DNA of 47,159 nucleotides from Dehalococcoidia bacterium (GTDB lineage Bacteria; Chloroflexota; Dehalococcoidia; Dehalococcoidales; JAUVZA01), in contig JAUVZA010000002.1 in the NCBI GenBank assembly GCA_030602805.1, positions 1 through 47,159 of the forward strand. Reading direction: 5' to 3'. The notes beneath the pieces are model-generated. The model was not told where the DNA came from. It saw only the letters and a list, made by a program, of their open reading frames with translations, and searched no databases. Numbering within the stretch: the first letter of the stretch is position 1; each line of letters begins with the position of its first letter. This document shows positions 3,940 to 38,201 of this stretch, one piece after another. Both the position numbers and the translations under genes were made by a program.

Positions 3940-4292
3940 GGGGACGCGCGGGTTCGACAGGGGGAGTAGACTACTGGATTGCAAGCTGAGGTGCCACTAA
4001 CCTCATTAAACAAGTGGCAAAAAAATAACTGGCAAAGAACCAGTTTTCGCTGCCTAATTAAATAGGTAGCACATCCAACCTGACCCCACCTCAACGGGTT
4101 GGGATTGGGTGCCGAAAAGTTGAGGTGCCACTGCTCGGATGCCGATGAGAGCAGTGAAAGAATTATCGGCTGGCTTGGCTAAACTCGGTCAGTAGAGGCT
4201 AGCCAGGTAAGATAAAAGAGCTGACTAAGCTTGTAGTATATTCTGGGGAGCTTCCGCTGGACGGGGAGTTCGATTCTCCCCCGTCTCCACCA
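3940..4292 (+). ncRNA. ssrA: transfer-messenger RNA (tmRNA)
   Basis: 5' GGGGACGCGCGGGTTCGACAGGG pairs with 3' CGTCTCCACCA, including a G3:U pair. T-arm is GGAGTTCGATTCTCC. Length is 353 nt. Candidate tag ORF at 4031-4057 is GGC AAA GAA CCA GTT TTC GCT GCC TAA (GKEPVFAA). Confidence 0.9.
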
Positions 4293-5394
4293 GAGAATCA
4301 GCGGGTTCATGGCTTAAGCCGGAGCCCGTTCCTTTTTGCTTAATCAGCCGCAATGGTGAGTATCGCTCTAAAGCTTCCCGCAATTGAGGCATTGGGAATT
4401 TAATATAACGGTCGTTCTGGCCAGGAATCTTGTCTCTTATCAATCGCATGGCAATGAATTCATCGTTGCTCGCAGTTGCCACTAGAGTTGCGAATGACCG
4501 GCGCAAGTCATGGCCTGTAATCCCACTTATTCCAGCTCTGGCACACAGCCGGGCAACAAGCTGGGCCATGCCGTCTTCACCGAGCGGTTCCCTCTGCCCA
4601 CTACGAATTCTGTTGGCCAAGATTACGTGATCTTCAGGCTTAAGACCACGTGCCAATTCTTTTAGCCTTTCCTCAGTCTCGTGTAAAATGGGCGTCCATT
4701 CGTCGCGCTCCTTACCTCTACACCAAATCACCCCGTTCCTGATGCCAACGACATCACCAGCTAATATACGGCTAACTTCAACCTGCCGCCAGCCGTGCCC
4801 AAGCAGAAGATCCAAGCATACTCTTTCCCTCTTTGAATCTGGCGTATTATCTATCTCACGCACTTCTTCCAAAGAGAGTGTCTTAATCGGCCTTTTAGTT
4901 ACGATAGGCCTGTCAAGAACATCAAGAGGATTACTTGGCCAGCCGAAATTCATGACAGCGTGCTCGTATAGCATATGTAGAAGATCGTGATGGTTACGTT
5001 TATGTCGTCCAGTCTCACCATCGAATTGGTTAAGATAACTCATAATTGATTCGGGCTTTTCAGGTAACCATGTAAATGCTCTCTCGAATTGATTAAGTCT
5101 CTTCTTATAAGTTTTGTATGTATTTCCCTTTACTCGTTTATACGTTTTGAAGGCTAGGAAGCTATCAATCACATCGCGAGTCCGCAGCTGTTTATCGAAT
5201 CCTTTGTTTTTTGCAATTTCAGACAAGAGTAATTCTGGCCGGGGTTGCTTATCTTGTAGGTATTCCTGTGCTACTAACTGATGCTCACCCGTTTCTGCCT
5301 TTATTTTTCCTCCTCCCGGAACCTCAGCCTCTATATAAAGTGGCTTCACCGTCCATCGCACTTTTTCCTCTAATGGTTCCATTTGATCTCCCAT
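4225..5394 (-). CDS. tyrosine-type site-specific integrase (island integrase)
   Basis: Contains GWRQVEV, HDLRRSFAT and DRYIKF (catalytic Tyr). The last ~22 codons (SLVETGENRTPRP...) are encoded antisense to the tmRNA 3' end (4225-4292). Confidence 0.9.
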   Translation of the reverse strand: MGDQMEPLEEKVRWTVKPLYIEAEVPGGGKIKAETGEHQLVAQEYLQDKQPRPELLLSEIAKNKGFDKQLRTRDVIDSFLAFKTYKRVKGNTYKTYKKRLNQFERAFTWLPEKPESIMSYLNQFDGETGRHKRNHHDLLHMLYEHAVMNFGWPSNPLDVLDRPIVTKRPIKTLSLEEVREIDNTPDSKRERVCLDLLLGHGWRQVEVSRILAGDVVGIRNGVIWCRGKERDEWTPILHETEERLKELARGLKPEDHVILANRIRSGQREPLGEDGMAQLVARLCARAGISGITGHDLRRSFATLVATASNDEFIAMRLIRDKIPGQNDRYIKFPMPQLREALERYSPLRLIKQKGTGSGLSHEPADSLVETGENRTPRPAEAPQNILQA

Positions 5395-15575: not shown

Positions 15576-15622
15576 GGCTGTTAACCGCTAGGTTGTAGGT
15601 TCGAGTCCTACCCGGGGAGCCA
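15576..15622 (+). pseudogene. tRNA-Asn(GTT) 3' fragment (anticodon loop to CCA), not a functional tRNA
   Basis: GGCTGTTAACCGCTAGGTTGTAGGTTCGAGTCCTACCCGGGGAGCCA. The upstream sequence lacks a D-arm and a 5' acceptor strand. Confidence 0.75.
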
Positions 15623-15660
15623 ACTCTCTCCCCTATACTGAAATACTGCTTGAATCGTGC

Positions 15661-16518: not shown

Positions 16519-16810
16519 TGTCCGCCCTGGTGGGCGCGGGTATCTGCTTGAGGAAACGCCTCGCCAGGTAGGAGTAAAGCCTTATTGTCTTCTCCGCCTT
16601 GCGTTCTGCTTTCAGCTTGGTGATCCAGGGCTCGAGATTCTCAACTGGGAGCTTGTGGGCAACACTGATGGAGACGCCTTCTGCCTTCGCCAATCGCGAG
16701 ATGAGGGAGGCCACCAGAGCCCGAGTGTCTGGTTGCAGGCGGCATAGCTGGTCAACGGAGTGTTGGAGCCTGCTGTTGGCTGACTGAATTGCCTTCATTG
16801 CCTTAACCAT
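16505..16810 (-). pseudogene. N-terminal (core-binding/SAM-like domain) fragment of a tyrosine recombinase
   Basis: WITKLKAERKAEKTIRLYSYLARRFL is typical of the integrase N-domain. There is no catalytic domain, and the fragment overlaps the 3' end of the neighbouring gene. Confidence 0.5.
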
Positions 16811-16876
16811 AGTACTATTATGGCGTGAAATGGGTGATTTGTAAGCGGTGGGACTTAGAGTTAGGAGGAAAACATC

Positions 16877-17455
16877 ATGGCACTAATACCAGCTTTTGAG
16901 ATAGGTGTGTGGAATGCTTGGATTCTCATGTTGTATATTCCCTTGCACCCTCTTATTATGATGCCAATTGATAAATTGGTGGGCACCGGGGATATATTTA
17001 AAAAAATGGAAACTCCTAGTTTTACCAAGACTGAGAATATTACAAATATTTTAAGCAATTTTGTTGTATTGTTTGGACTCTTTATATACTCAATATTTTT
17101 GCCGTTACAATTAGGAACGATATGGTTTTATGTAGGGCTCGTTCTATGTGTATTAGGGGTGGTTACCTGGACGTTAGCTATAGCGAATATTGTCAATATC
17201 CCATTCGGTGAGCCGTGGAAGAAGGGGCTCTATCGATATTCAAGACATCCCATGACTCTCGCTTGTTATTTGATATTTATAGGTACAGGTATAGCTTCAG
17301 CCTCATGGATATTCTTATTGTTTTCAATCGTATATATAATTTTAGGAGCTATTCCCACAATTGCAGAAGAACGTTTCTGCCTTGATAAGTATGGTGATAC
17401 ATACCGTGAATACATAAATAGAACACCACGATGGATAGGGATACCCAAATCTTAA
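16877..17455 (+). CDS. isoprenylcysteine carboxyl methyltransferase (ICMT)/PEMT-family membrane methyltransferase, copy 1
   Basis: Multi-TM protein with YRYSRHPM...AEERFCLDKYGDTYREYINRTPRW. AGGAGG RBS. Confidence 0.8.
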   Translation: MALIPAFEIGVWNAWILMLYIPLHPLIMMPIDKLVGTGDIFKKMETPSFTKTENITNILSNFVVLFGLFIYSIFLPLQLGTIWFYVGLVLCVLGVVTWTLAIANIVNIPFGEPWKKGLYRYSRHPMTLACYLIFIGTGIASASWIFLLFSIVYIILGAIPTIAEERFCLDKYGDTYREYINRTPRWIGIPKS

Positions 17456-17480
17456 TTGACCAACAAAGGAGGTATTATCC

Positions 17481-17762
17481 ATGGCAAACTGTCTTAATCC
17501 TAAATCCCTTATTTGTCTTGACCGGAAATCCATAATCGATGCGGGCGGCTATCATCTATTTGGGTCCAGAATTTTTTCCGTTCTTGGTCTTGTGTTCGCT
17601 GTATTGGGGATTATTAGCGATGCTGCGAATGCTACTCTCGGCTTGGAGCCAATATCTTGGTTCCTGCTGGCAATTGGTGTTTCTGTAGTCGGCATAGCAC
17701 CTTGTATCGGCTGGGCGGTGGCTGTGTATCTCAAATCCATGGAAGCCAAGAAAGAGCAATAG
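17481..17762 (+). CDS. small 2-TM membrane protein, copy 1 (unknown family)
   Basis: AAGGAGG RBS. Reads MANCLNPKSLICLDRKSIIDAGGYHL... followed by two hydrophobic helices. It is 25 nt downstream of the ICMT gene. Confidence 0.65.
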   Translation: MANCLNPKSLICLDRKSIIDAGGYHLFGSRIFSVLGLVFAVLGIISDAANATLGLEPISWFLLAIGVSVVGIAPCIGWAVAVYLKSMEAKKEQ

Positions 17763-17882
17763 AATCCAGGTGAAGTAGTAGCTGCCTGAATTGCTTGCGT
17801 TGCCTTAACCATAGTATTATTATGGCGCAAAGAGGGGGATTTTTAAGCGCCTTTGGTGAAAATATGTTACAGGAGGTAAGCA

Positions 17883-18666: not shown

Positions 18667-18706
18667 AACCGCTAGGTTGTAGGTTCGAGTCCTACCCGGG
18701 GAGCCA
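18667..18706 (+). pseudogene. tRNA-Asn 3' fragment, second copy
   Basis: AACCGCTAGGTTGTAGGTTCGAGTCCTACCCGGGGAGCCA is identical to 15583-15622. Confidence 0.75.
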
Positions 18707-18799
18707 ATTTAATCTCTGGAGTGATACAATTAATATACATAATATGGCATTGGACCAGTTAGTACTATAAATTGTAGCCCACTATAAGAACCATGTCAT

Positions 18800-21709
18800 T
18801 TACGACTCTAGACCATACCTCTTTGCTCTCGTGATAAACGCTTCCTCTCCTCCCTCCATAATCTCGATAACGGCGCGAACAATAGCCTCCTTATCGATAC
18901 ATCCACGTTCTCTAAGTATACCCCTACTGTCGCTCAGTGCATCAAGGACTATCACCTGCTCAGCATCACCCGAGACAACGATATTTGGGTTATGGGTTGC
19001 CACGATGATTTGCCGCTTTTCTTTAAGATTTTTTAGGATGTCAACCAGCATTTTCCCGACTAGACGGTTGTCGAGATTATCTTCAGGCTGATCAATAATA
19101 AGAGGAATGTCTTCCACTAAGACAATAAGGGGGAGCATTGCGCTTGACCTTTGACCCGGTGATAATCCTTCAACAGCACGCCCATTGAGTAGAATACCCT
19201 CATCATCATCCCATTCCGTCTCTGCCATGTGCAGTATTTTCCCTAACTTCACCTTGTCTATAATTGGAACATCTGCATCAGAATCATGAGCAAATGGAAA
19301 TGTCGTCGAGGTGATTCCCTCTGCCATGCCTTCATCTACACCCATTTCTTGCCCATTAATGGTAAAACTCGACACCAATTTCGTGTGTTCTTTAGCTAGT
19401 AATGCTTCGGCCATTTCTATTGGACTACAGCTCAGGCTGAAACGCTCAGGCCAGAGGTTTGCCCGCCAGTGTCCGTGTAAATCTCCACTAAATATCCCGC
19501 TACTGTACAAATGGGCAATAAATTTTTCTCGATCTTGTCCTTGTCGGAATCGAAGCGAAATCTCCATTTCAGGTGTACTAAACTTATTAAGCTCGCTTTC
19601 AATTTCTTCTTTTCGCTTTAATCTTCTTTCGCTAATTTCACCCTGGATATCCTGGAGCGTATGAGCTATACCTTTCCATTCCGCTAATAGCGCCTCGAAT
19701 TCACTCCATGCTTCTATATACTCCCGCCTAAGGCCAGTTGCTTGCCTAAGTCTCTCGTCTGCTAGTCTACGTAATTCAGCTGCCGTCTGTTTCGTAGCCT
19801 CTTCACCGATTCTATCTCTAAGATCCTTTTCCTTTCCTTGCAGTTCCTCGTTTACTGTTCTAATCTCGCTCTGCAATTCCCCAGATATTGTCCTCAACAT
19901 CTGCATACCTGCTTCAAAGTGTTTAGTGGCTTCAGATATTTTCCCTTTAAGTTGATCGCGCCTAGGAGATTTATCCCACCAGTCATTAAGTACATCTTTT
20001 AATTCCTTACTTAATTCATCTATTCCAGGAATTATATCAATTTCCACTCTCTCTGATAATTTATTTAGCCAATCTTGAAGATCACCATCTATTTTCTTTA
20101 GTATTGACTCTTTTGCTTTTGCTATATCAATATCCCTGAATAAATCCTTTATCTCGACTGTATTGAGTTTATCAAAGTCAGATTGGTACTCTTTATACCT
20201 TTTGATTTCGCCCCCATTTCTTCCCATAACTGTTTCTAGTTTCGTGACTGCAGCAGCTATTTCTGCCCTTTTCCCTCTAATCATTAGTCTAACTTCGTCA
20301 CGTTTCTCGCTTGCTTGCTGAAATTCTGGGATTAATCTGTCAAGAAGCTCCCTCTGCCGACCTGCCTCCCTCCCTAGCGTCTCGATTTCACTCCACCCGA
20401 ATAACCTAACAGGATAGTTAGTCTCAATATTATGAATCTCTCGCACGTTTCCGTTTGCATCATAGACCCGCGTTGTACAGTCCTGCTTATTATCAAAGAT
20501 GCTCTCGAGTATATGATGCTCACCGTCCTCAGCTACATATACGAGTCGCATTACACAATCTGTTAAAGTAGCTCGCTGTAAACTCCGTGCTTTAGCGGCT
20601 AATTCTGCACCTGCCTTTTCCATTTCATTCAGATGTTTATTCTGGTCGAACATATATCGAAGTGATTCAATGATTGTGGATTTACCTGATCCCCGTGGCC
20701 CTATCATACATGTTAGATTATCGGAGAAGGCTACTCCGATATTCTCAAAAAAGCCGCTCTCACTTCCAGCAACAATTTCCATACCCAGAATTCGTGGGCA
20801 TGGCTTGGCGGGGACATCACTCGGAAACCTAATCCGTGTCTCTGCAAATCTCAGCGCTTGAACAAGATCTTCGAAACATACTGATGCCATCTTGATATAA
20901 GTTACTCTCTCCTGCGAATCAAGATCTTCTATACAATGGGCATCACCTTTCAGCAAAACGGCTATGCTCGTCTTCCGTCCGGTTATTTCGCTAACCCAAC
21001 AGTAATGCTCCTTATCGCTGCTCTTAGCCACTTCTATACCATCGAATCCTGCCGATAGTATCCAATCCTTGAATAATTCTGAAATACGCTTTTCTTCACC
21101 CGTCGATAGTTCTCCATTCGGTGCACAGAAAGTAATCCCGTCTCTTCCTAATTGTCTAAAAGTTCTTCGAGCTCCTCTGTCCGTGTCTATATGTGCCGCT
21201 ATGCATATCCCTCCACAATTGTGAATAACATCAACGAAGTCCTTAATTTGCCCAATTTCCTTTATCTCTTCATTACCTACCCGAGACTTCTCTTCGGGAA
21301 TGTACTGCGGTAGTATCCGGCAAATCCGTTCATGTGGTAACTTTTCCGGAAAGATTCCTAATATGTGAATACGAAAAGCATTAAGTGGGGGAGATGGTCG
21401 AATGTTTATTTCCATTCCAGGTAAAACGCATATACTGCTAGAAGTTAAAGTGTCTGATGCGCGACAAGCTAACCCGCATTTCATATGATCCGTTATCGCT
21501 ACCATATCTAGGTTGCTTTTAACAAGCTCAGCAAGGTATTCTTGTTCACTCTTAGCGTGCATTCCCTTACAATCAGTACCGCTTGCTGCGAAGGTCCTGC
21601 CATAGTCTGGACTGTCTGGGGAATGAGAATGAAGTACTACCTTACGAAAAAGCCCTACATCTTGCCTGTGCTCTTCTAATCGCCTTAATAATTCTGTATA
21701 ACCCGCCAT
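18800..21709 (-). CDS. PHP-domain phosphoesterase fused to an SMC/Rad50-like coiled-coil ABC ATPase (969 aa)
   Basis: PHP motifs: H27-x-H29, D74-H75, E100, H173, D256-x-H258. Walker A is GPRGSGKST (337-345). A charged heptad-rich region spans ~455-715. Then LSPGQR (849-854), Walker B LIIDQPED (869-876) and ATHNPN (~904-909). GGAGGGAAGA RBS. Confidence 0.8.
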   Translation of the reverse strand: MAGYTELLRRLEEHRQDVGLFRKVVLHSHSPDSPDYGRTFAASGTDCKGMHAKSEQEYLAELVKSNLDMVAITDHMKCGLACRASDTLTSSSICVLPGMEINIRPSPPLNAFRIHILGIFPEKLPHERICRILPQYIPEEKSRVGNEEIKEIGQIKDFVDVIHNCGGICIAAHIDTDRGARRTFRQLGRDGITFCAPNGELSTGEEKRISELFKDWILSAGFDGIEVAKSSDKEHYCWVSEITGRKTSIAVLLKGDAHCIEDLDSQERVTYIKMASVCFEDLVQALRFAETRIRFPSDVPAKPCPRILGMEIVAGSESGFFENIGVAFSDNLTCMIGPRGSGKSTIIESLRYMFDQNKHLNEMEKAGAELAAKARSLQRATLTDCVMRLVYVAEDGEHHILESIFDNKQDCTTRVYDANGNVREIHNIETNYPVRLFGWSEIETLGREAGRQRELLDRLIPEFQQASEKRDEVRLMIRGKRAEIAAAVTKLETVMGRNGGEIKRYKEYQSDFDKLNTVEIKDLFRDIDIAKAKESILKKIDGDLQDWLNKLSERVEIDIIPGIDELSKELKDVLNDWWDKSPRRDQLKGKISEATKHFEAGMQMLRTISGELQSEIRTVNEELQGKEKDLRDRIGEEATKQTAAELRRLADERLRQATGLRREYIEAWSEFEALLAEWKGIAHTLQDIQGEISERRLKRKEEIESELNKFSTPEMEISLRFRQGQDREKFIAHLYSSGIFSGDLHGHWRANLWPERFSLSCSPIEMAEALLAKEHTKLVSSFTINGQEMGVDEGMAEGITSTTFPFAHDSDADVPIIDKVKLGKILHMAETEWDDDEGILLNGRAVEGLSPGQRSSAMLPLIVLVEDIPLIIDQPEDNLDNRLVGKMLVDILKNLKEKRQIIVATHNPNIVVSGDAEQVIVLDALSDSRGILRERGCIDKEAIVRAVIEIMEGGEEAFITRAKRYGLES

Positions 21710-21867
21710 TCTTCCCTCCTATTTGGGTCTGCATACTTGCTATGTTTTAGAAAGCACCAACCCATATTCGCTATATACGAGAATTAGGGTATAATTTTCG
21801 CATACAGTATCGTTAATACTTACTCCGGGAGATAGGTGCCAAGCGTATTTATATATGCTCGCTCCAC

Positions 21868-21979
21868 AAGCCCCACGACGCGAAACGGGGCTTGCCTGAC
21901 TTTTAATAAGTGTCATACGCCTCGCGACCCAACCTTCAAGTACTTCACTATCGGGCGGGGCGCCACATCAAGAATCTGG
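21868..21979 (+). repeat. ~110-nt repeat family 2, copy 1
   Basis: AAGCCCCACGACGCGAAACGGGGC...GTGTCATACGCCTCGCGACCCA...GGGCGGGGCGCCAC...AGAATCT. Related copies lie at 36439-36497 and 38092-38201. Confidence 0.75.
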
Positions 21980-21993
21980 CGTCTTTATCTGTC

Positions 21994-22119
21994 CTATCTC
22001 TTTGGAGGGTTGTTTCCTCTGTCCCCACCTGATGGGTTGCCGGTTCTACTCGGCCAATTACCACCGCTTTTTCCTCCTCCTTTACCACTGCCTTTGCCTC
22101 CACTACTGCCTTTACCCAT
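21994..22119 (-). CDS. Gly-rich micro-protein, 41 aa (tentative)
   Basis: AAAGGAGGTAACGAT ATG. Reads MGKGSSGGKGSGKGGGKSGGNWPSRTGNPSGGDRGNNPPKR. Below the ORF-track cutoff. Confidence 0.4.
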   Translation of the reverse strand: MGKGSSGGKGSGKGGGKSGGNWPSRTGNPSGGDRGNNPPKR

Positions 22120-23935: not shown

Positions 23936-24351
23936 ACCAATTTCCCTCCTTTGTGTATATGTATTTCCTCCCCTTTATTAGGAGAAATTGCCTATCTGCC
24001 CAGTCATGCGTTATCAACAATTAGGTAGAATTGTTGAGGCATATTCCCCTATGGCTGGTGGAGGAGACCGTACAAATATTAATCCTTGCTTTCTACTCAT
24101 TGCCGGCCTTACCCTCTTTGTTCGTTAACTGGAGGACAACTTCTCGCAGCTTGTCGGGGCGATGACCATTACCTCCAAGGGTCAGATTAAGCTGCTGTGC
24201 TAACTGTCCCAGGACAACAAGGTGGTCCAATAGATGTGGCAATAGTTGTGTGGGATCATCTTCGAGATATAGTTTAGAAGCATTAGGGTAACCGATAGCA
24301 AAAAGCTTGTTCAGGTAGCTGAGGTTACGTTCTAGCGAACTATCTGTGCAT

Positions 24352-24385
24352 GGCGGGGGGGTTCGACCCTCCCCCGTCTCCACCA
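24352..24385 (+). repeat. displaced copy of the ssrA 3' end (island att core)
   Basis: GGCGGGGGGGTTCGACCCTCCCCCGTCTCCACCA. The last 17 nt (24369-24385) are identical to tmRNA 4276-4292. Confidence 0.85.
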
Positions 24386-24728
24386 AACCCACCATTTCTC
24401 GCCCTGATTGCTTCGGGGCGTTTTCTTTTTGATCTTCGGGGCCGGGCTCACCTGACTCCTCGGGATTAAACACTATTACCTTGGAATCCGGTTTTTGTCT
24501 CAGTGACTCAAATAAACTGTAGAATGCAGGCTTTGGAAGCCACCCTACTATGCTGCGGCTAGCTATGAGGTCAATATAGACTGCATCAAGCATCCGAGTT
24601 AGAAGTCTGTGTTTTTCCTCTTTTCGCCTACCGGACAGTTTGCCCCGGAGCGCGAGCCTCTTTTTTCGCCCAAACTGGAAGCGATTCAATACCGTGCTTC
24701 GTTCTTCCTTTCCAAGTAAAGGCCTCAC
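24386..24728 (-). pseudogene. C-terminal remnant of a large serine recombinase
   Basis: ...RLLTRMLDAVYIDLIASRSIVGWLPKPAFYSLFESL resembles the C-terminal end of large serine recombinases. No catalytic domain is present. The track ORF 24093..24728 simply reads on through the ssrA copy. Confidence 0.45.
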
Positions 24729-36303: not shown

Positions 36304-36438
36304 GACTTTCTCCTATTCTGGGAGTACGTATTTGCACAAATTATCATAATTATACAATAAGGTCACAAATCGTCAGAATATTCAATAAAGGAACGATTTT
36401 AGACACGCAGAAGCGCCCTGATCCCGGCCCTGCCCCAC

Positions 36439-36497
36439 GAGCCCCACGCCGCGAAACGGGGCCTGCCGGGACTCAAATGAGTGCCATACGCCTAAGC
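36439..36497 (+). repeat. repeat family 2, partial copy 2
   Basis: AGCCCCACGCCGCGAAACGGGGCCTGCC...GAGTGCCATACGCCTAAGCGA. Confidence 0.65.
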
Positions 36498-36550: not shown

Positions 36551-36579
36551 TTGCATCTCCTGCCTGCATGTAATATTAT
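36551..36579 (+). promoter_or_regulatory. promoter TTGCAT-N17-TATTAT upstream of ICMT cassette copy 2
   Basis: TTGCAT at 36551-36556 and TATTAT at 36574-36579. The -10 element and the following ~35 nt are conserved with 16814-16860 and 17813-17860. Confidence 0.5.
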
Positions 36580-36631
36580 GGCGTGAAGGGGGGTTGTAAG
36601 CGGTTGAACCCAGGGCAAGGAGGAACATATC

Positions 36632-37201
36632 GTGTCGGCTATACCAGCATTTGAGATTGGTGTCTGGAACGTCTGGATTTTCGTGATTTGGCTACTAATA
36701 CCTTTTTTCTTGGGACCTTTAGGTATAATTCCTAAGGGTCGAGAGGAGGGGAGCGATTTTACCGCTGAGTTCAATAAGATGCAGAAGATTGCAATCCTTT
36801 CTCTCCATGTGATCTTTCCCCTCCTGATTATATATTCCATTTTCGTACCGTTAAGATTGGGTACAGTGTGGTTTTATGCAGGCCTTCCTATTTATTTATT
36901 AGGTTTAACCACGTATATAATGGTTTTTGTGGGTTTTGCCACTACGCCACCTGACGAGCTCGTTACCAAGGGAATATATCGCTATTCAAGAAATCCAATG
37001 CAACTCTCCATATTTATACTCCTCGTAGGGGTGGGCATAGCTACATCTTCCTGGGTTTTCTTGTTGCTTTCCGCAGCATATATGACTATACCGCTCCTTT
37101 GGTTAAATGCCGAAGAACAACACTGCCTCAAATTCTACGGCGATGCCTATCGTGAATACACGAATAAAACGCCAAGGTGGATAGGGATACCAAAATCTTA
37201 A
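36632..37201 (+). CDS. ICMT/PEMT-family membrane methyltransferase, copy 2
   Basis: Paralogue of 16877..17455 (MSAIPAFEIGVWNVW..., YRYSRNPM, AEEQHCLKFYGDAYREYTNKTPRW). GTG start after AAGGAGG. Confidence 0.8.
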   Translation: MSAIPAFEIGVWNVWIFVIWLLIPFFLGPLGIIPKGREEGSDFTAEFNKMQKIAILSLHVIFPLLIIYSIFVPLRLGTVWFYAGLPIYLLGLTTYIMVFVGFATTPPDELVTKGIYRYSRNPMQLSIFILLVGVGIATSSWVFLLLSAAYMTIPLLWLNAEEQHCLKFYGDAYREYTNKTPRWIGIPKS

Positions 37202-37225
37202 ATTCAAAGGAAGGAGGTATATATT

Positions 37226-37507
37226 ATGGCGAGCTGTCTTAATCCTAAGTCCCCCATTTGTCTTGACCCAAAATCCATAATCGATGCGGGTGGCTATCAT
37301 CTATTGGGGTCTAGAATTTTTTCCGTTCTGGGTCTTATATTCGCTATATTAGGGGTTATTAGTGATGCCATGAACGCGACTCTAGGCTTGGAACCAATAT
37401 CTTGGTTCCTGCTGGCAATTGGTGTTTCTGTAGTCAGCATAGCACCTTGTGTTGGCTGGGCGGTGGCTGTATATCTCAGGTCTATAGAGGCTAAGAAGGA
37501 GCAATAG
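37226..37507 (+). CDS. small 2-TM membrane protein, copy 2
   Basis: About 85 percent aa identity to 17481..17762 (MASCLNPKSPICLDPKSIIDAGGYHL...). Confidence 0.65.
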   Translation: MASCLNPKSPICLDPKSIIDAGGYHLLGSRIFSVLGLIFAILGVISDAMNATLGLEPISWFLLAIGVSVVSIAPCVGWAVAVYLRSIEAKKEQ

Positions 37508-37733
37508 AATCTAGGTGAAGTAGTAGCTACCTGAATTGCCTTATAAAACTTCTTACTATCCTCAAACCTCACCGACCTTGTGTATCGCTCTACTTGGCCA
37601 GTGATTCCCACCCACCCAGGTCTTTGATGTATGGTTGTGCTAAGTATTATTTTAATAGATTTAAACGAAGTATTGACAGTAGGCCCTATTGGGATTAGTA
37701 TAACCAATAAATTAGATTATAGAGGTGATTAAC

Positions 37734-37985: not shown

Positions 37986-38091
37986 GCCATAAACCAAGAT
38001 TCTAAGGCTGTTAGATTCTCACTTGACACTGCTGGCTCCTCACAATGAATTATACCATCAGGTAAGGTATAAAGTAATACCCTATGTCCAT

Positions 38092-38201
38092 AAGCCCCAC
38101 GCCGCGAAACGGGTCACACTAGGGCTCAGACGAGTGCCATACGCCTCACGACCCAGCCTTTGCGCACTTCCCTATTGGGCGGGGCGCCACGTTGAGAATC
38201 T
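38092..38201 (+). repeat. repeat family 2, copy 3
   Basis: AAGCCCCACGCCGCGAAACGGG...GAGTGCCATACGCCTCACGACCCAGCCTT...GGGCGGGGCGCCACGTTGAGAATCT. Confidence 0.75.

Follow-up and report, generated by a model that had tools for sequence, protein, structure and literature searches.

A divergent member of the TrlF/Ppl family, joining a PHP domain to an SMC/Rad50-like ATPase, in an ssrA island of a Dehalococcoidia bacterium

The stretch of DNA analysed here, referred to below as the window, comprises 47,159 nucleotides of contig JAUVZA010000002.1 from a Dehalococcoidia bacterium (GenBank assembly GCA_030602805.1). Its minus strand carries an open reading frame (ORF) of 2910 nt (18800-21709; 969 codons, ATG start), whose product combines a PHP phosphoesterase domain with an ABC ATPase of the SMC/Rad50 type. 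This 969-aa protein is new to the TrlF/Ppl family, within which it is divergent, and it is not Ppl in the strict sense; its membership in the superfamily as a whole is close to certain. The gene is located within an integrase-bearing island of about 20 kb at the tmRNA gene ssrA (about 4258-24385). We favour, with moderate confidence, the interpretation that the protein is a stand-alone, nucleotide-gated, end-processing PHP nuclease with an SMC-like dimerising head, which would act in defence and travel as island cargo.

The gene is real and conserved and is not a chance ORF, since a word-indexed search returned 450 homologues at E<=1e-5, the best being 58% identical and all about 950-990 aa long, and an exhaustive search returned 574 representatives of 50%-identity clusters at E<=1e-30. 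The ATG is preceded at a distance of 5 nt by a Shine-Dalgarno sequence, AGGAGG, and the start region has in-frame stops directly upstream of it. An earlier annotation made from the sequence alone (hereafter the original prediction) had described an uninterrupted ORF with a good ribosome-binding site, and both features were confirmed. Its coordinates were also correct, and the minus strand, which it left unstated, can now be added. A script located all of its motifs at the residues that it had given (HSH at 27, DH at 74, DAH at 256, GPRGSGKS at 337, LSPGQ at 849, LIIDQP at 870 and ATHN at 904).

The N-terminal domain matches the Pfam PHP model (PF02811) only weakly (E 0.044; 14.6 bits against a cut-off of 26.4). 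Its assignment rests instead on nine conserved ligand positions, on a structural match to RNase AM and on an alignment of motifs. Across the 84 homologues used for all conservation values given here, the predicted ligands H27, H29, H75, E100, H115 and H173 are invariant, and D35, D256 and H258 are conserved in at least 90%, so that the full nine-ligand PHP metal site is conserved. In the AlphaFold2 (AF2) model, residues 20-300 form a mixed alpha/beta domain that is followed by the N-terminal lobe of the ABC head. The best Foldseek match of this domain is RNase AM (YciV/TrpH; 7ug9, E 1e-6, TM 0.57, 20% identity), with 9etk also recovered at E 1e-5, and phmmer aligns PHP motifs II-IV to 7ug9. 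The PHP metal-binding pattern that the original prediction had placed at about residues 24-290 is thus supported by both conservation and fold. RNase AM itself differs from the 969-aa protein in being a stand-alone exoribonuclease without an ATPase. Because the closest match of the PHP domain is an exoribonuclease, the substrate could be RNA as well as DNA.

The remainder of the protein scores above the Pfam cut-offs for SMC_N (53.6 bits against 40), AAA_15, AAA_21 and AAA_23. The AF2 model, built from the alignment of the 84 homologues, reached a pLDDT of 85.1 and a pTM of 0.72. In this model the ABC head is split by an insert of about 245 residues of long helices (463-499, 501-515, 518-555, 582-634 and 638-708) with a lower-confidence apex at residues 556-581, and the C-terminal lobe spans residues 717-966. 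A hydrophobic periodicity of 3.5 residues exceeded that of shuffled sequences in three of the four long helices (p 0.05, 0.009 and 0.024), the first helix being the exception (p 0.30). The charged, heptad-like stretch noted previously at about residues 455-715 therefore corresponds to a probable coiled-coil arm. Among the homologues, G337, G342, K343, S344, Q378, S850-R854, D873, Q874, E876, D877, D880 and H906 are invariant, which is consistent with an SMC/Rad50/RecN-type ABC head in which the Walker A motif, a Q-loop candidate, the signature motif, the Walker B aspartate and the H-loop are intact. Foldseek searches against the Protein Data Bank (PDB) matched the heads of SMC, MukB, condensin, RecF, JetC, Rad50, RecN and LmuB (E 6e-10 to 1e-6), and the alignments covered SMC heads including the coiled coil, for example in 5xei. 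The proposal of a single chain fusing a PHP phosphoesterase to a Rad50/SMC-type coiled-coil ABC ATPase is accordingly upheld by Pfam, NCBIfam, the alignment, AF2 and Foldseek.

The structural check suggested with the original prediction recovered the long helices and the SMC/Rad50/RecN-type head and gave a negative result for a zinc hook, as there is no cysteine between residues 412 and 760 of the 969-aa protein. The apex carries instead a pair of tryptophans, of which W577 is invariant and W578 is conserved in at least 90% of the homologues. The two arms would probably pack in antiparallel fashion and the PHP domain would be positioned on the head (one chain was modelled). The Mre11-Rad50/SbcCD-like logic that had been proposed for this protein stands in so far as a nuclease is coupled to a coiled-coil ABC ATPase with a head fold matching that of Rad50. 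It does not extend further: the nuclease is of the PHP type, with no match to a calcineurin-like metallophosphatase, a single polypeptide holds both activities, each arm has a length of only about 95-125 residues and there is no CxxC zinc hook, the gene is accessory and not core, and the catalytic glutamate of the ATPase is replaced by glutamine.

This glutamine, Q874, directly follows the Walker B aspartate D873, and the D873-Q874 pair aligns to the Asp-Glu pair of Thermotoga maritima SMC (1e69). The catalytic glutamate is therefore absent from the 969-aa protein, and the glutamine is invariant in the homologues. The DQPED motif is common to the 969-aa protein, Ppl and the TrlF of an E. coli plasmid, and glutamine at the catalytic-glutamate position is a feature of the entire TrlF/Ppl family. 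Engineered Glu-to-Gln substitutions in SMC, Rad50 and ABC proteins block hydrolysis and retain ATP-dependent head engagement. Because this exchange is natural in the 969-aa protein, nucleotide would serve it mainly as a ligand. Lamassu LmuB, Wadjet JetC, RecN and RecF share with it an ABC head with a short coiled coil, and LmuB is also matched at the level of its PADLOC model; these four proteins carry the canonical Walker B Asp-Glu, and in Lamassu and Wadjet the effector nuclease is a separate subunit.

Assignment to the TrlF/Ppl family was made by profile comparison. The NCBIfam model NF045780, 'TrlF family AAA-like ATPase', matched the 969-aa protein above its cut-off (370.5 bits against 350) in one stretch, from residue 21 to 966 and from position 5 to 944 of a model of 944 positions. 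In a profile-profile comparison with hhalign, an alignment of the 84 homologues was matched to one of 25 Ppl/TrlF-type proteins with a probability of 100% and E 1e-102 over 852 columns, reaching from the PHP domain to the C-terminus and including the long helical insert. Ppl-type proteins thus carry the same insert in a somewhat shorter form, which answers a question that the original prediction had left open. Among the PADLOC models (raw hmmscan), Ppl was the best match (E 9.7e-34), followed by the generic ABC-type defence ATPases mad3, AriA, PtuA, LmuB and GajA. Close relatives from metagenome-assembled genomes (MAGs) already carry the automatic label TrlF family, and the protein is not an orphan.

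Ppl is a subfamily inside the TrlF umbrella, because the annotated Ppl of an E. coli plasmid (L001, 891 aa) reaches 1330 bits with the Ppl model and, at 477 bits, also exceeds the cut-off of the TrlF model. The resemblance to Ppl that the original prediction had suggested therefore holds at the superfamily level and fails for Ppl in the strict sense, given the score on the Ppl model (183 against 1000 bits) and a separate clade. On NF045780 the closest homologues of the 969-aa protein score 374-390 bits, near its own 370, whereas Ppl and the plasmid and archaeal TrlFs reach 477-635 bits; the NCBIfam Spaf_1101 model gave a sub-threshold match (241 against 475 bits). In a neighbour-joining tree without support values, the 969-aa protein belongs to a clade of proteins of about 970 aa with a clade of about 1100 aa as its sister, and both lie well apart from the branch that unites Ppl and the plasmid and archaeal TrlFs with TrlG-linked proteins and PHP-less proteins. 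Searches for a solved structure of a Ppl or TrlF protein returned SMC and ABC heads only from the PDB sequences and no Ppl entry among the 50 Foldseek matches listed, and a search of viral folds in BFVD returned only generic Rad50/SMC-like phage proteins.

Compared with Ppl (NCBIfam NF042955, PADLOC PDLC02208), the 969-aa protein has the same order of parts, namely PHP domain, ABC N-lobe, long helical insert and ABC C-lobe, and shares full-length profile homology, the DQPED Walker B motif, a single-gene organization and a location on mobile DNA. It differs in length (969 aa versus 891 aa), in its deep placement in a separate clade of the tree and in a local identity of only 23-35%. To the Photorhabdus TrlF, after whose locus NF045780 is named, it is linked by its full-length match above the family cut-off and by the name given to its MAG relatives. 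In contrast to that protein, it is encoded without a TrlG partner (SLFN_AlbA_2 plus HATPase_c_4) in the window, where tblastn with nine TrlG-like proteins found nothing better than E 0.89, and the composition of the TRL operon, with TrlG and the small regulator TrlR, is not found around the 969-aa gene. TrlG-linked TrlFs are moreover about 880-900 aa long, and genes for a DNA methylase and a ResIII helicase often lie on either side.

Relatives of the 969-aa protein are widely and patchily distributed. Among species-representative genomes we found at least 586 matches over very diverse phyla, Asgard archaea included, with a best identity of 42% and hence no close relative. The deep branch of about 970 aa occurs in Planctomycetota, Solirubrobacterales, Thermodesulfobacteriota, Chloroflexota and Asgard archaea, and the homologues of the 969-aa protein come mostly from environmental MAGs, not from enterobacterial plasmids. 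Among plasmids, relatives were found in 1140 records, 824 of them conjugative, under the annotations TrlF family or ppl; in some examples the relative lies beside a helicase and an N6-methylase, in others beside a restriction endonuclease with DUF1156, DUF262 and DUF499 proteins.

Ten annotated loci of the ~970-aa clade were used to describe its genomic context. In six of them the gene adjoins restriction-modification, toxin-antitoxin, integrase or recombinase genes: one locus has SNF2-PLD, Eco57I, MNT/HEPN, Fic and BrnTA genes nearby, another has Prim-Pol, helicase, AAA_24 and serine recombinase genes, a third has type I restriction-modification genes and a Toprim protein, and the remaining three have VapBC, an integrase, and HigBA-like genes with MmeI, respectively. 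No recurrent neighbour family was detected for the ~970-aa group, either in its 17 genome loci (neighbour clustering covered 80 fetched loci overall) or in the ten annotated contexts. The neighbourhood survey advised with the original prediction thus turned out positive for six loci and neutral for four, and the conserved syntenic housekeeping gene that would have contradicted it was not seen, the distribution being patchy and synteny in the sampled loci not conserved. The island with its integrase, the scattered phyla, the plasmid records, the six loci and the lack of a conserved neighbour together point to an accessory and mobile gene. This pattern fits an accessory gene that spreads horizontally and, in the ~970-aa clade, functions without a partner.

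The TrlF/Ppl family as a whole holds at least four architectural groups: the solitary proteins of about 970 aa, those of about 1100 aa, those of about 880-900 aa that are often paired with TrlG, and PHP-less ATPases of about 630-660 aa. Within the ~880-900-aa group, a TrlG-type gene (SLFN_AlbA_2 plus HATPase_c_4, about 400 aa) lies immediately downstream in 11 loci (L039, L041, L042, L044, L047, L052, L056, L065 and others), often with an N6_N4 DNA methylase upstream and a ResIII-type protein of about 930-1035 aa downstream. The TrlF-TrlG pair looks embedded in an operon resembling a type III restriction-modification system. The PHP-less genes (L069, L072, L074, L075, L078-L080, L083, L084, L087, L089-L093, L096 and L097) always have a HATPase_c (kinase-like) gene and a gene for a receiver domain after them, and are often found near serine recombinases or phage-like replication genes. 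A split system, with a separate PHP gene serving the PHP-less homologues, was considered and rejected, as hmmsearch with a PHP profile over all neighbouring ORFs returned only frameshifted pieces of the same gene. Copies split by frameshift into PHP and ATPase pieces were observed at six loci (L019, L034, L036, L040, L048 and L086); these could reflect decay or assembly errors, and many of them come from long-read MAGs.

Ppl acts against phages as a system of one gene, which 10.1101/2022.08.27.505566 credits to Gao et al.; its activity against phages, and its counteraction by gp130 of phage Bas63, have been described (PMC11482910). According to a 2026 review (PMC12904381), E. coli Ppl is an ssDNA 3'-5' exonuclease that is inhibited by NTPs bound at its PHP and NTPase domains and is activated by phage-induced nucleotide depletion together with 3'-OH ends produced by homing endonucleases. 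The view of the original prediction that the mechanism would be uncharacterised in any case is thus outdated. If the 969-aa enzyme behaves like its homologue, E. coli Ppl, it would be held inactive by bound NTP. Two chains may engage through their ABC heads around bound nucleotide, as Rad50 and SMC heads do, and this engagement may hold or release the PHP nuclease, with nucleotide probably acting as a regulatory ligand and not as fuel, as the glutamine at the catalytic position suggests. Infection-induced nucleotide depletion and exposed DNA ends would then license exonucleolytic degradation of invading DNA, and the enzyme would constitute a one-gene defence against phages or mobile elements.

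Several observations weigh against this interpretation. The TrlF cut-off is cleared by a narrow margin only, the Ppl equivalog model NF042955 is missed widely (183.4 bits, in three stretches), and BLASTP against Ppl reaches an identity of only 35% in the last 140 residues and of 23% in the N-terminal 395. Ppl is the only tested relative, so that a defence role of the ~970-aa clade is proposed by homology, and the Ppl mechanism is itself taken second-hand from the review. The exoribonuclease resemblance of the PHP domain described above adds to these points. Four of the ten sampled loci lie in neutral or housekeeping surroundings, and in one of these four the homologue (54% identity, L004 911-10353) lies directly upstream of, and on the same strand as, genes for an AddB-like (PDDEXK_1) and an AddA-like (UvrD helicase) protein. 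In the window, none of the neighbouring ORFs belongs to a PADLOC or NCBIfam defence family (BrxC and LmuB matched a 295-aa ORF at noise level only), and the remaining island cargo is metabolic, comprising MttB, a corrinoid protein, PrpD, SDR and an M19 dipeptidase. The 'classic defence-island context' of the original prediction is therefore not borne out in the window, and the contextual support for defence comes from homologue loci elsewhere.

Plasmids and foreign DNA are the targets of the SMC-like systems Wadjet and Lamassu, and the 969-aa protein could likewise serve the mobile element itself, as a factor of inter-element competition or maintenance that destroys incoming plasmids or rivals or stabilises the island. 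In favour of this are the high frequency of the family on conjugative plasmids, the location of the gene in an island with an integrase, the homologues that adjoin an integrase or a serine recombinase with a Prim-Pol/helicase module, and the Foldseek matches to JetC and LmuB. We nevertheless regard this as unlikely, as the only tested relative, Ppl, protects against phages (PMC11482910) and many homologues lie on chromosomes where no mobile element is visible in their vicinity; moreover, such a role overlaps with phage defence more than it excludes it. A little less improbable is that the ~970-aa clade forms a functionally distinct lineage, in which an EQ-locked, non-hydrolysing head would sense nucleotide levels, the Trp-Trp apex would take the place of a zinc hook in arm-arm or DNA contact, and the trigger or substrate would differ; that substrate could be RNA, as for RNase AM. 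An enzyme directed to RNA, with a 5'-3' exoribonuclease resembling RNase AM that the ATPase tethers to or gates on RNA such as phage transcripts or tRNA-like RNAs, would agree with RNase AM (7ug9 and 9etk) being the closest match of the PHP domain in structure and sequence, and the Ppl counter gp130 of Bas63 resembles the RNA-binding protein Ro60 (PMC11482910). Its probability is low, given that Ppl is reported as an ssDNA exonuclease (PMC12904381), that the matching SMC/Rad50/RecF/RecN-type heads are those of DNA-binding ATPases and that the identity to RNase AM is only 20%.

Two roles outside defence each seem still less probable. The Photorhabdus trlR-trlF-trlG operon causes growth arrest at 36 deg C (PMC7554251), and the 969-aa protein passes the model named after this locus, so that a TRL-type module controlling growth under stress or at certain temperatures might be envisaged. 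We consider this quite improbable: the window lacks a TrlG-like AlbA_2/HATPase_c_4 gene, no small regulator gene is found directly upstream of the 969-aa ORF, the TrlG-linked proteins form a different, shorter clade, and the Photorhabdus mutations all fall in trlG and none in trlF (PMC7554251). The least probable, in our estimate by a small degree, is a housekeeping function in the processing of double-strand breaks or hairpins, as a fused analogue of SbcCD/Mre11-Rad50. The combination of a nuclease with a coiled-coil ABC ATPase, the presence of Rad50 and RecN among the structural matches and the homologue upstream of AddB/AddA-like genes agree with it, whereas the patchy distribution without conserved synteny, the location of the gene in an island here and of its homologues often beside restriction-modification or toxin-antitoxin genes, the missing zinc hook and the glutamine in place of the catalytic glutamate speak against it. 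A nucleotide-gated nuclease acting in defence remains the interpretation that we favour.

Table 1. Coordinates of the 969-aa gene, its predicted domains and features of the surrounding island in the window.
Feature	Position	Strand	Basis or remark
969-aa ORF, divergent TrlF/Ppl family member (PHP nuclease plus SMC/Rad50-like ABC ATPase)	18800..21709	minus	ORF list, motifs, NF045780, hhalign, AF2
Shine-Dalgarno sequence of the 969-aa ORF	21715..21720	minus	read directly from the sequence
Predicted PHP phosphoesterase domain, aa ~20-300	20810..21652	minus	conserved ligands, Foldseek, phmmer; Pfam weak
Predicted ABC head N-lobe, aa ~305-460; Walker A G337-T345 (K343), invariant Q378 as Q-loop candidate	20330..20797	minus	Pfam, alignment, Foldseek
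Long helical insert, aa 463-708, probable coiled-coil arm	19586..20323	minus	AF2 helices, heptad periodicity, alignment, Foldseek
Predicted ABC head C-lobe, aa 717-966; LSPGQR 849-854, Walker B LIID873, Q874, E876, D877, D880, H906	18812..19561	minus	alignment, motif scan
tmRNA gene ssrA; last 35 nt (4258-4292) are the island-proximal att copy	3940..4292	plus	repeat family D14
Island tyrosine integrase	4225..5394	minus	Phage_integrase, E 2.6e-12
Displaced ssrA 3'-end copy, 30/35 identical, last 16 nt identical	24351..24385	plus	repeat analysis
Terminator-like hairpin after the displaced ssrA copy	24400-24420		
tRNA 3'-end fragment (T-arm, acceptor 3' strand, CCA), att-like remnant, 93 nt past the stop codon of the 969-aa ORF	18667..18707	plus	repeat family D11
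Second 41-nt copy of the tRNA fragment, 100% identical	15583..15623	plus	repeat analysis
GIY-YIG domain protein, 196 aa	22274..22864	minus	GIY-YIG, E 1.1e-6; no PADLOC match

The 969-aa gene lies inside the ssrA island, since the 35 nt at the 3' end of ssrA recur beyond the gene (Table 1). Such a displaced 3'-end repeat is the usual mark of an island that supplies a new 3' end to its target gene and displaces the original one. The integrase ORF, which runs on the opposite strand, shares 68 nt with the 3' end of ssrA, and this places the att core inside the int frame. The ssrA island, the adjoining tRNA fragment and the nearby GIY-YIG gene of the original prediction were all recovered. Apart from the metabolic genes listed above, the cargo consists of genes for a PEMT-like methyltransferase, an NYN-LOTUS protein, the GIY-YIG protein and unknowns (the MttB protein being MttB-like). 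The immediate neighbours of the 969-aa gene are the tRNA fragment, a 41-aa Gly-rich ORF and the GIY-YIG ORF, and the GIY-YIG family is not listed among the called genes of the ten sampled homologue loci and so is not a conserved partner.

The island is a mosaic, because a perfect 41-nt tRNA repeat flanks an internal module of 3 kb. This module contains a 285-aa unknown ORF, the PEMT-like methyltransferase and the NYN plus OST-HTH/LOTUS protein, and has the appearance of a small element, or of what is left of an att site, within the ssrA island. The copy at 15583-15623 is preceded by GGCTGTTAA (CT-GTT-AA), which resembles an Asn anticodon loop, and on this sequence the two fragments may derive from tRNA-Asn. 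Neither Rfam nor ARAGORN returned a match for them; no tRNA-Asn was present in the fetched homologue loci for comparison, and the window contains no full tRNA with the 3' end of the fragment.

The 41-codon ORF between the GIY-YIG and 969-aa genes (21994-22119, minus strand) has a strong ribosome-binding site, and its product is a peptide rich in Gly, Lys and Ser, MGKGSSGGKGSGKGGGKSGGNWPSRTGNPSGGDRGNNPPKR. At 21861-21977, a short way upstream of the 969-aa gene, lies a repeat of about 60-117 nt with the core CCACAAGCCCCACGCCGCGAAACGGGGC...GAGTGCCATACGCCT and with copies at 36432-36493 and 38085-38201 (69-83% identity). It was tried as a structured RNA and rejected, as no Rfam match exceeded chance and its folding energy on the strand tested equalled that of shuffled sequences (z = -0.02). 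Duplications were also found around the PEMT-like gene, within the regions 16779-17849 and 36570-37542: the 3' end of the gene and the downstream ORF (17359-17765) recur at 37105-37510 (75-87% identity), and a 69-nt element is present both at 16779-16847 and at 17781-17849 and, in part, at 36570-36592 and 37526-37542. The direct repeats 39894-40068/40885-41060 (91-96% identity) and 11056-11212/11393-11549 (77%) form two more pairs, which are unrelated to the 969-aa gene.

The architecture and the family of this protein, as well as the defence role of one member, Ppl, are already known, and the 969-aa gene adds no new type of system. The new findings are modest: a divergent clade, a conserved glutamine and Trp-Trp apex, and the division of the family into groups with different partners. 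An unannotated environmental gene is thereby placed in the TrlF/Ppl family, whose breadth goes far beyond the enterobacterial plasmid genes used to test it, and the invariant glutamine fits the reported regulation of Ppl by nucleotide binding. Should the ~970-aa clade also protect its hosts from phages, immunity by one-gene PHP-SMC nucleases would be widespread among bacteria and archaea.

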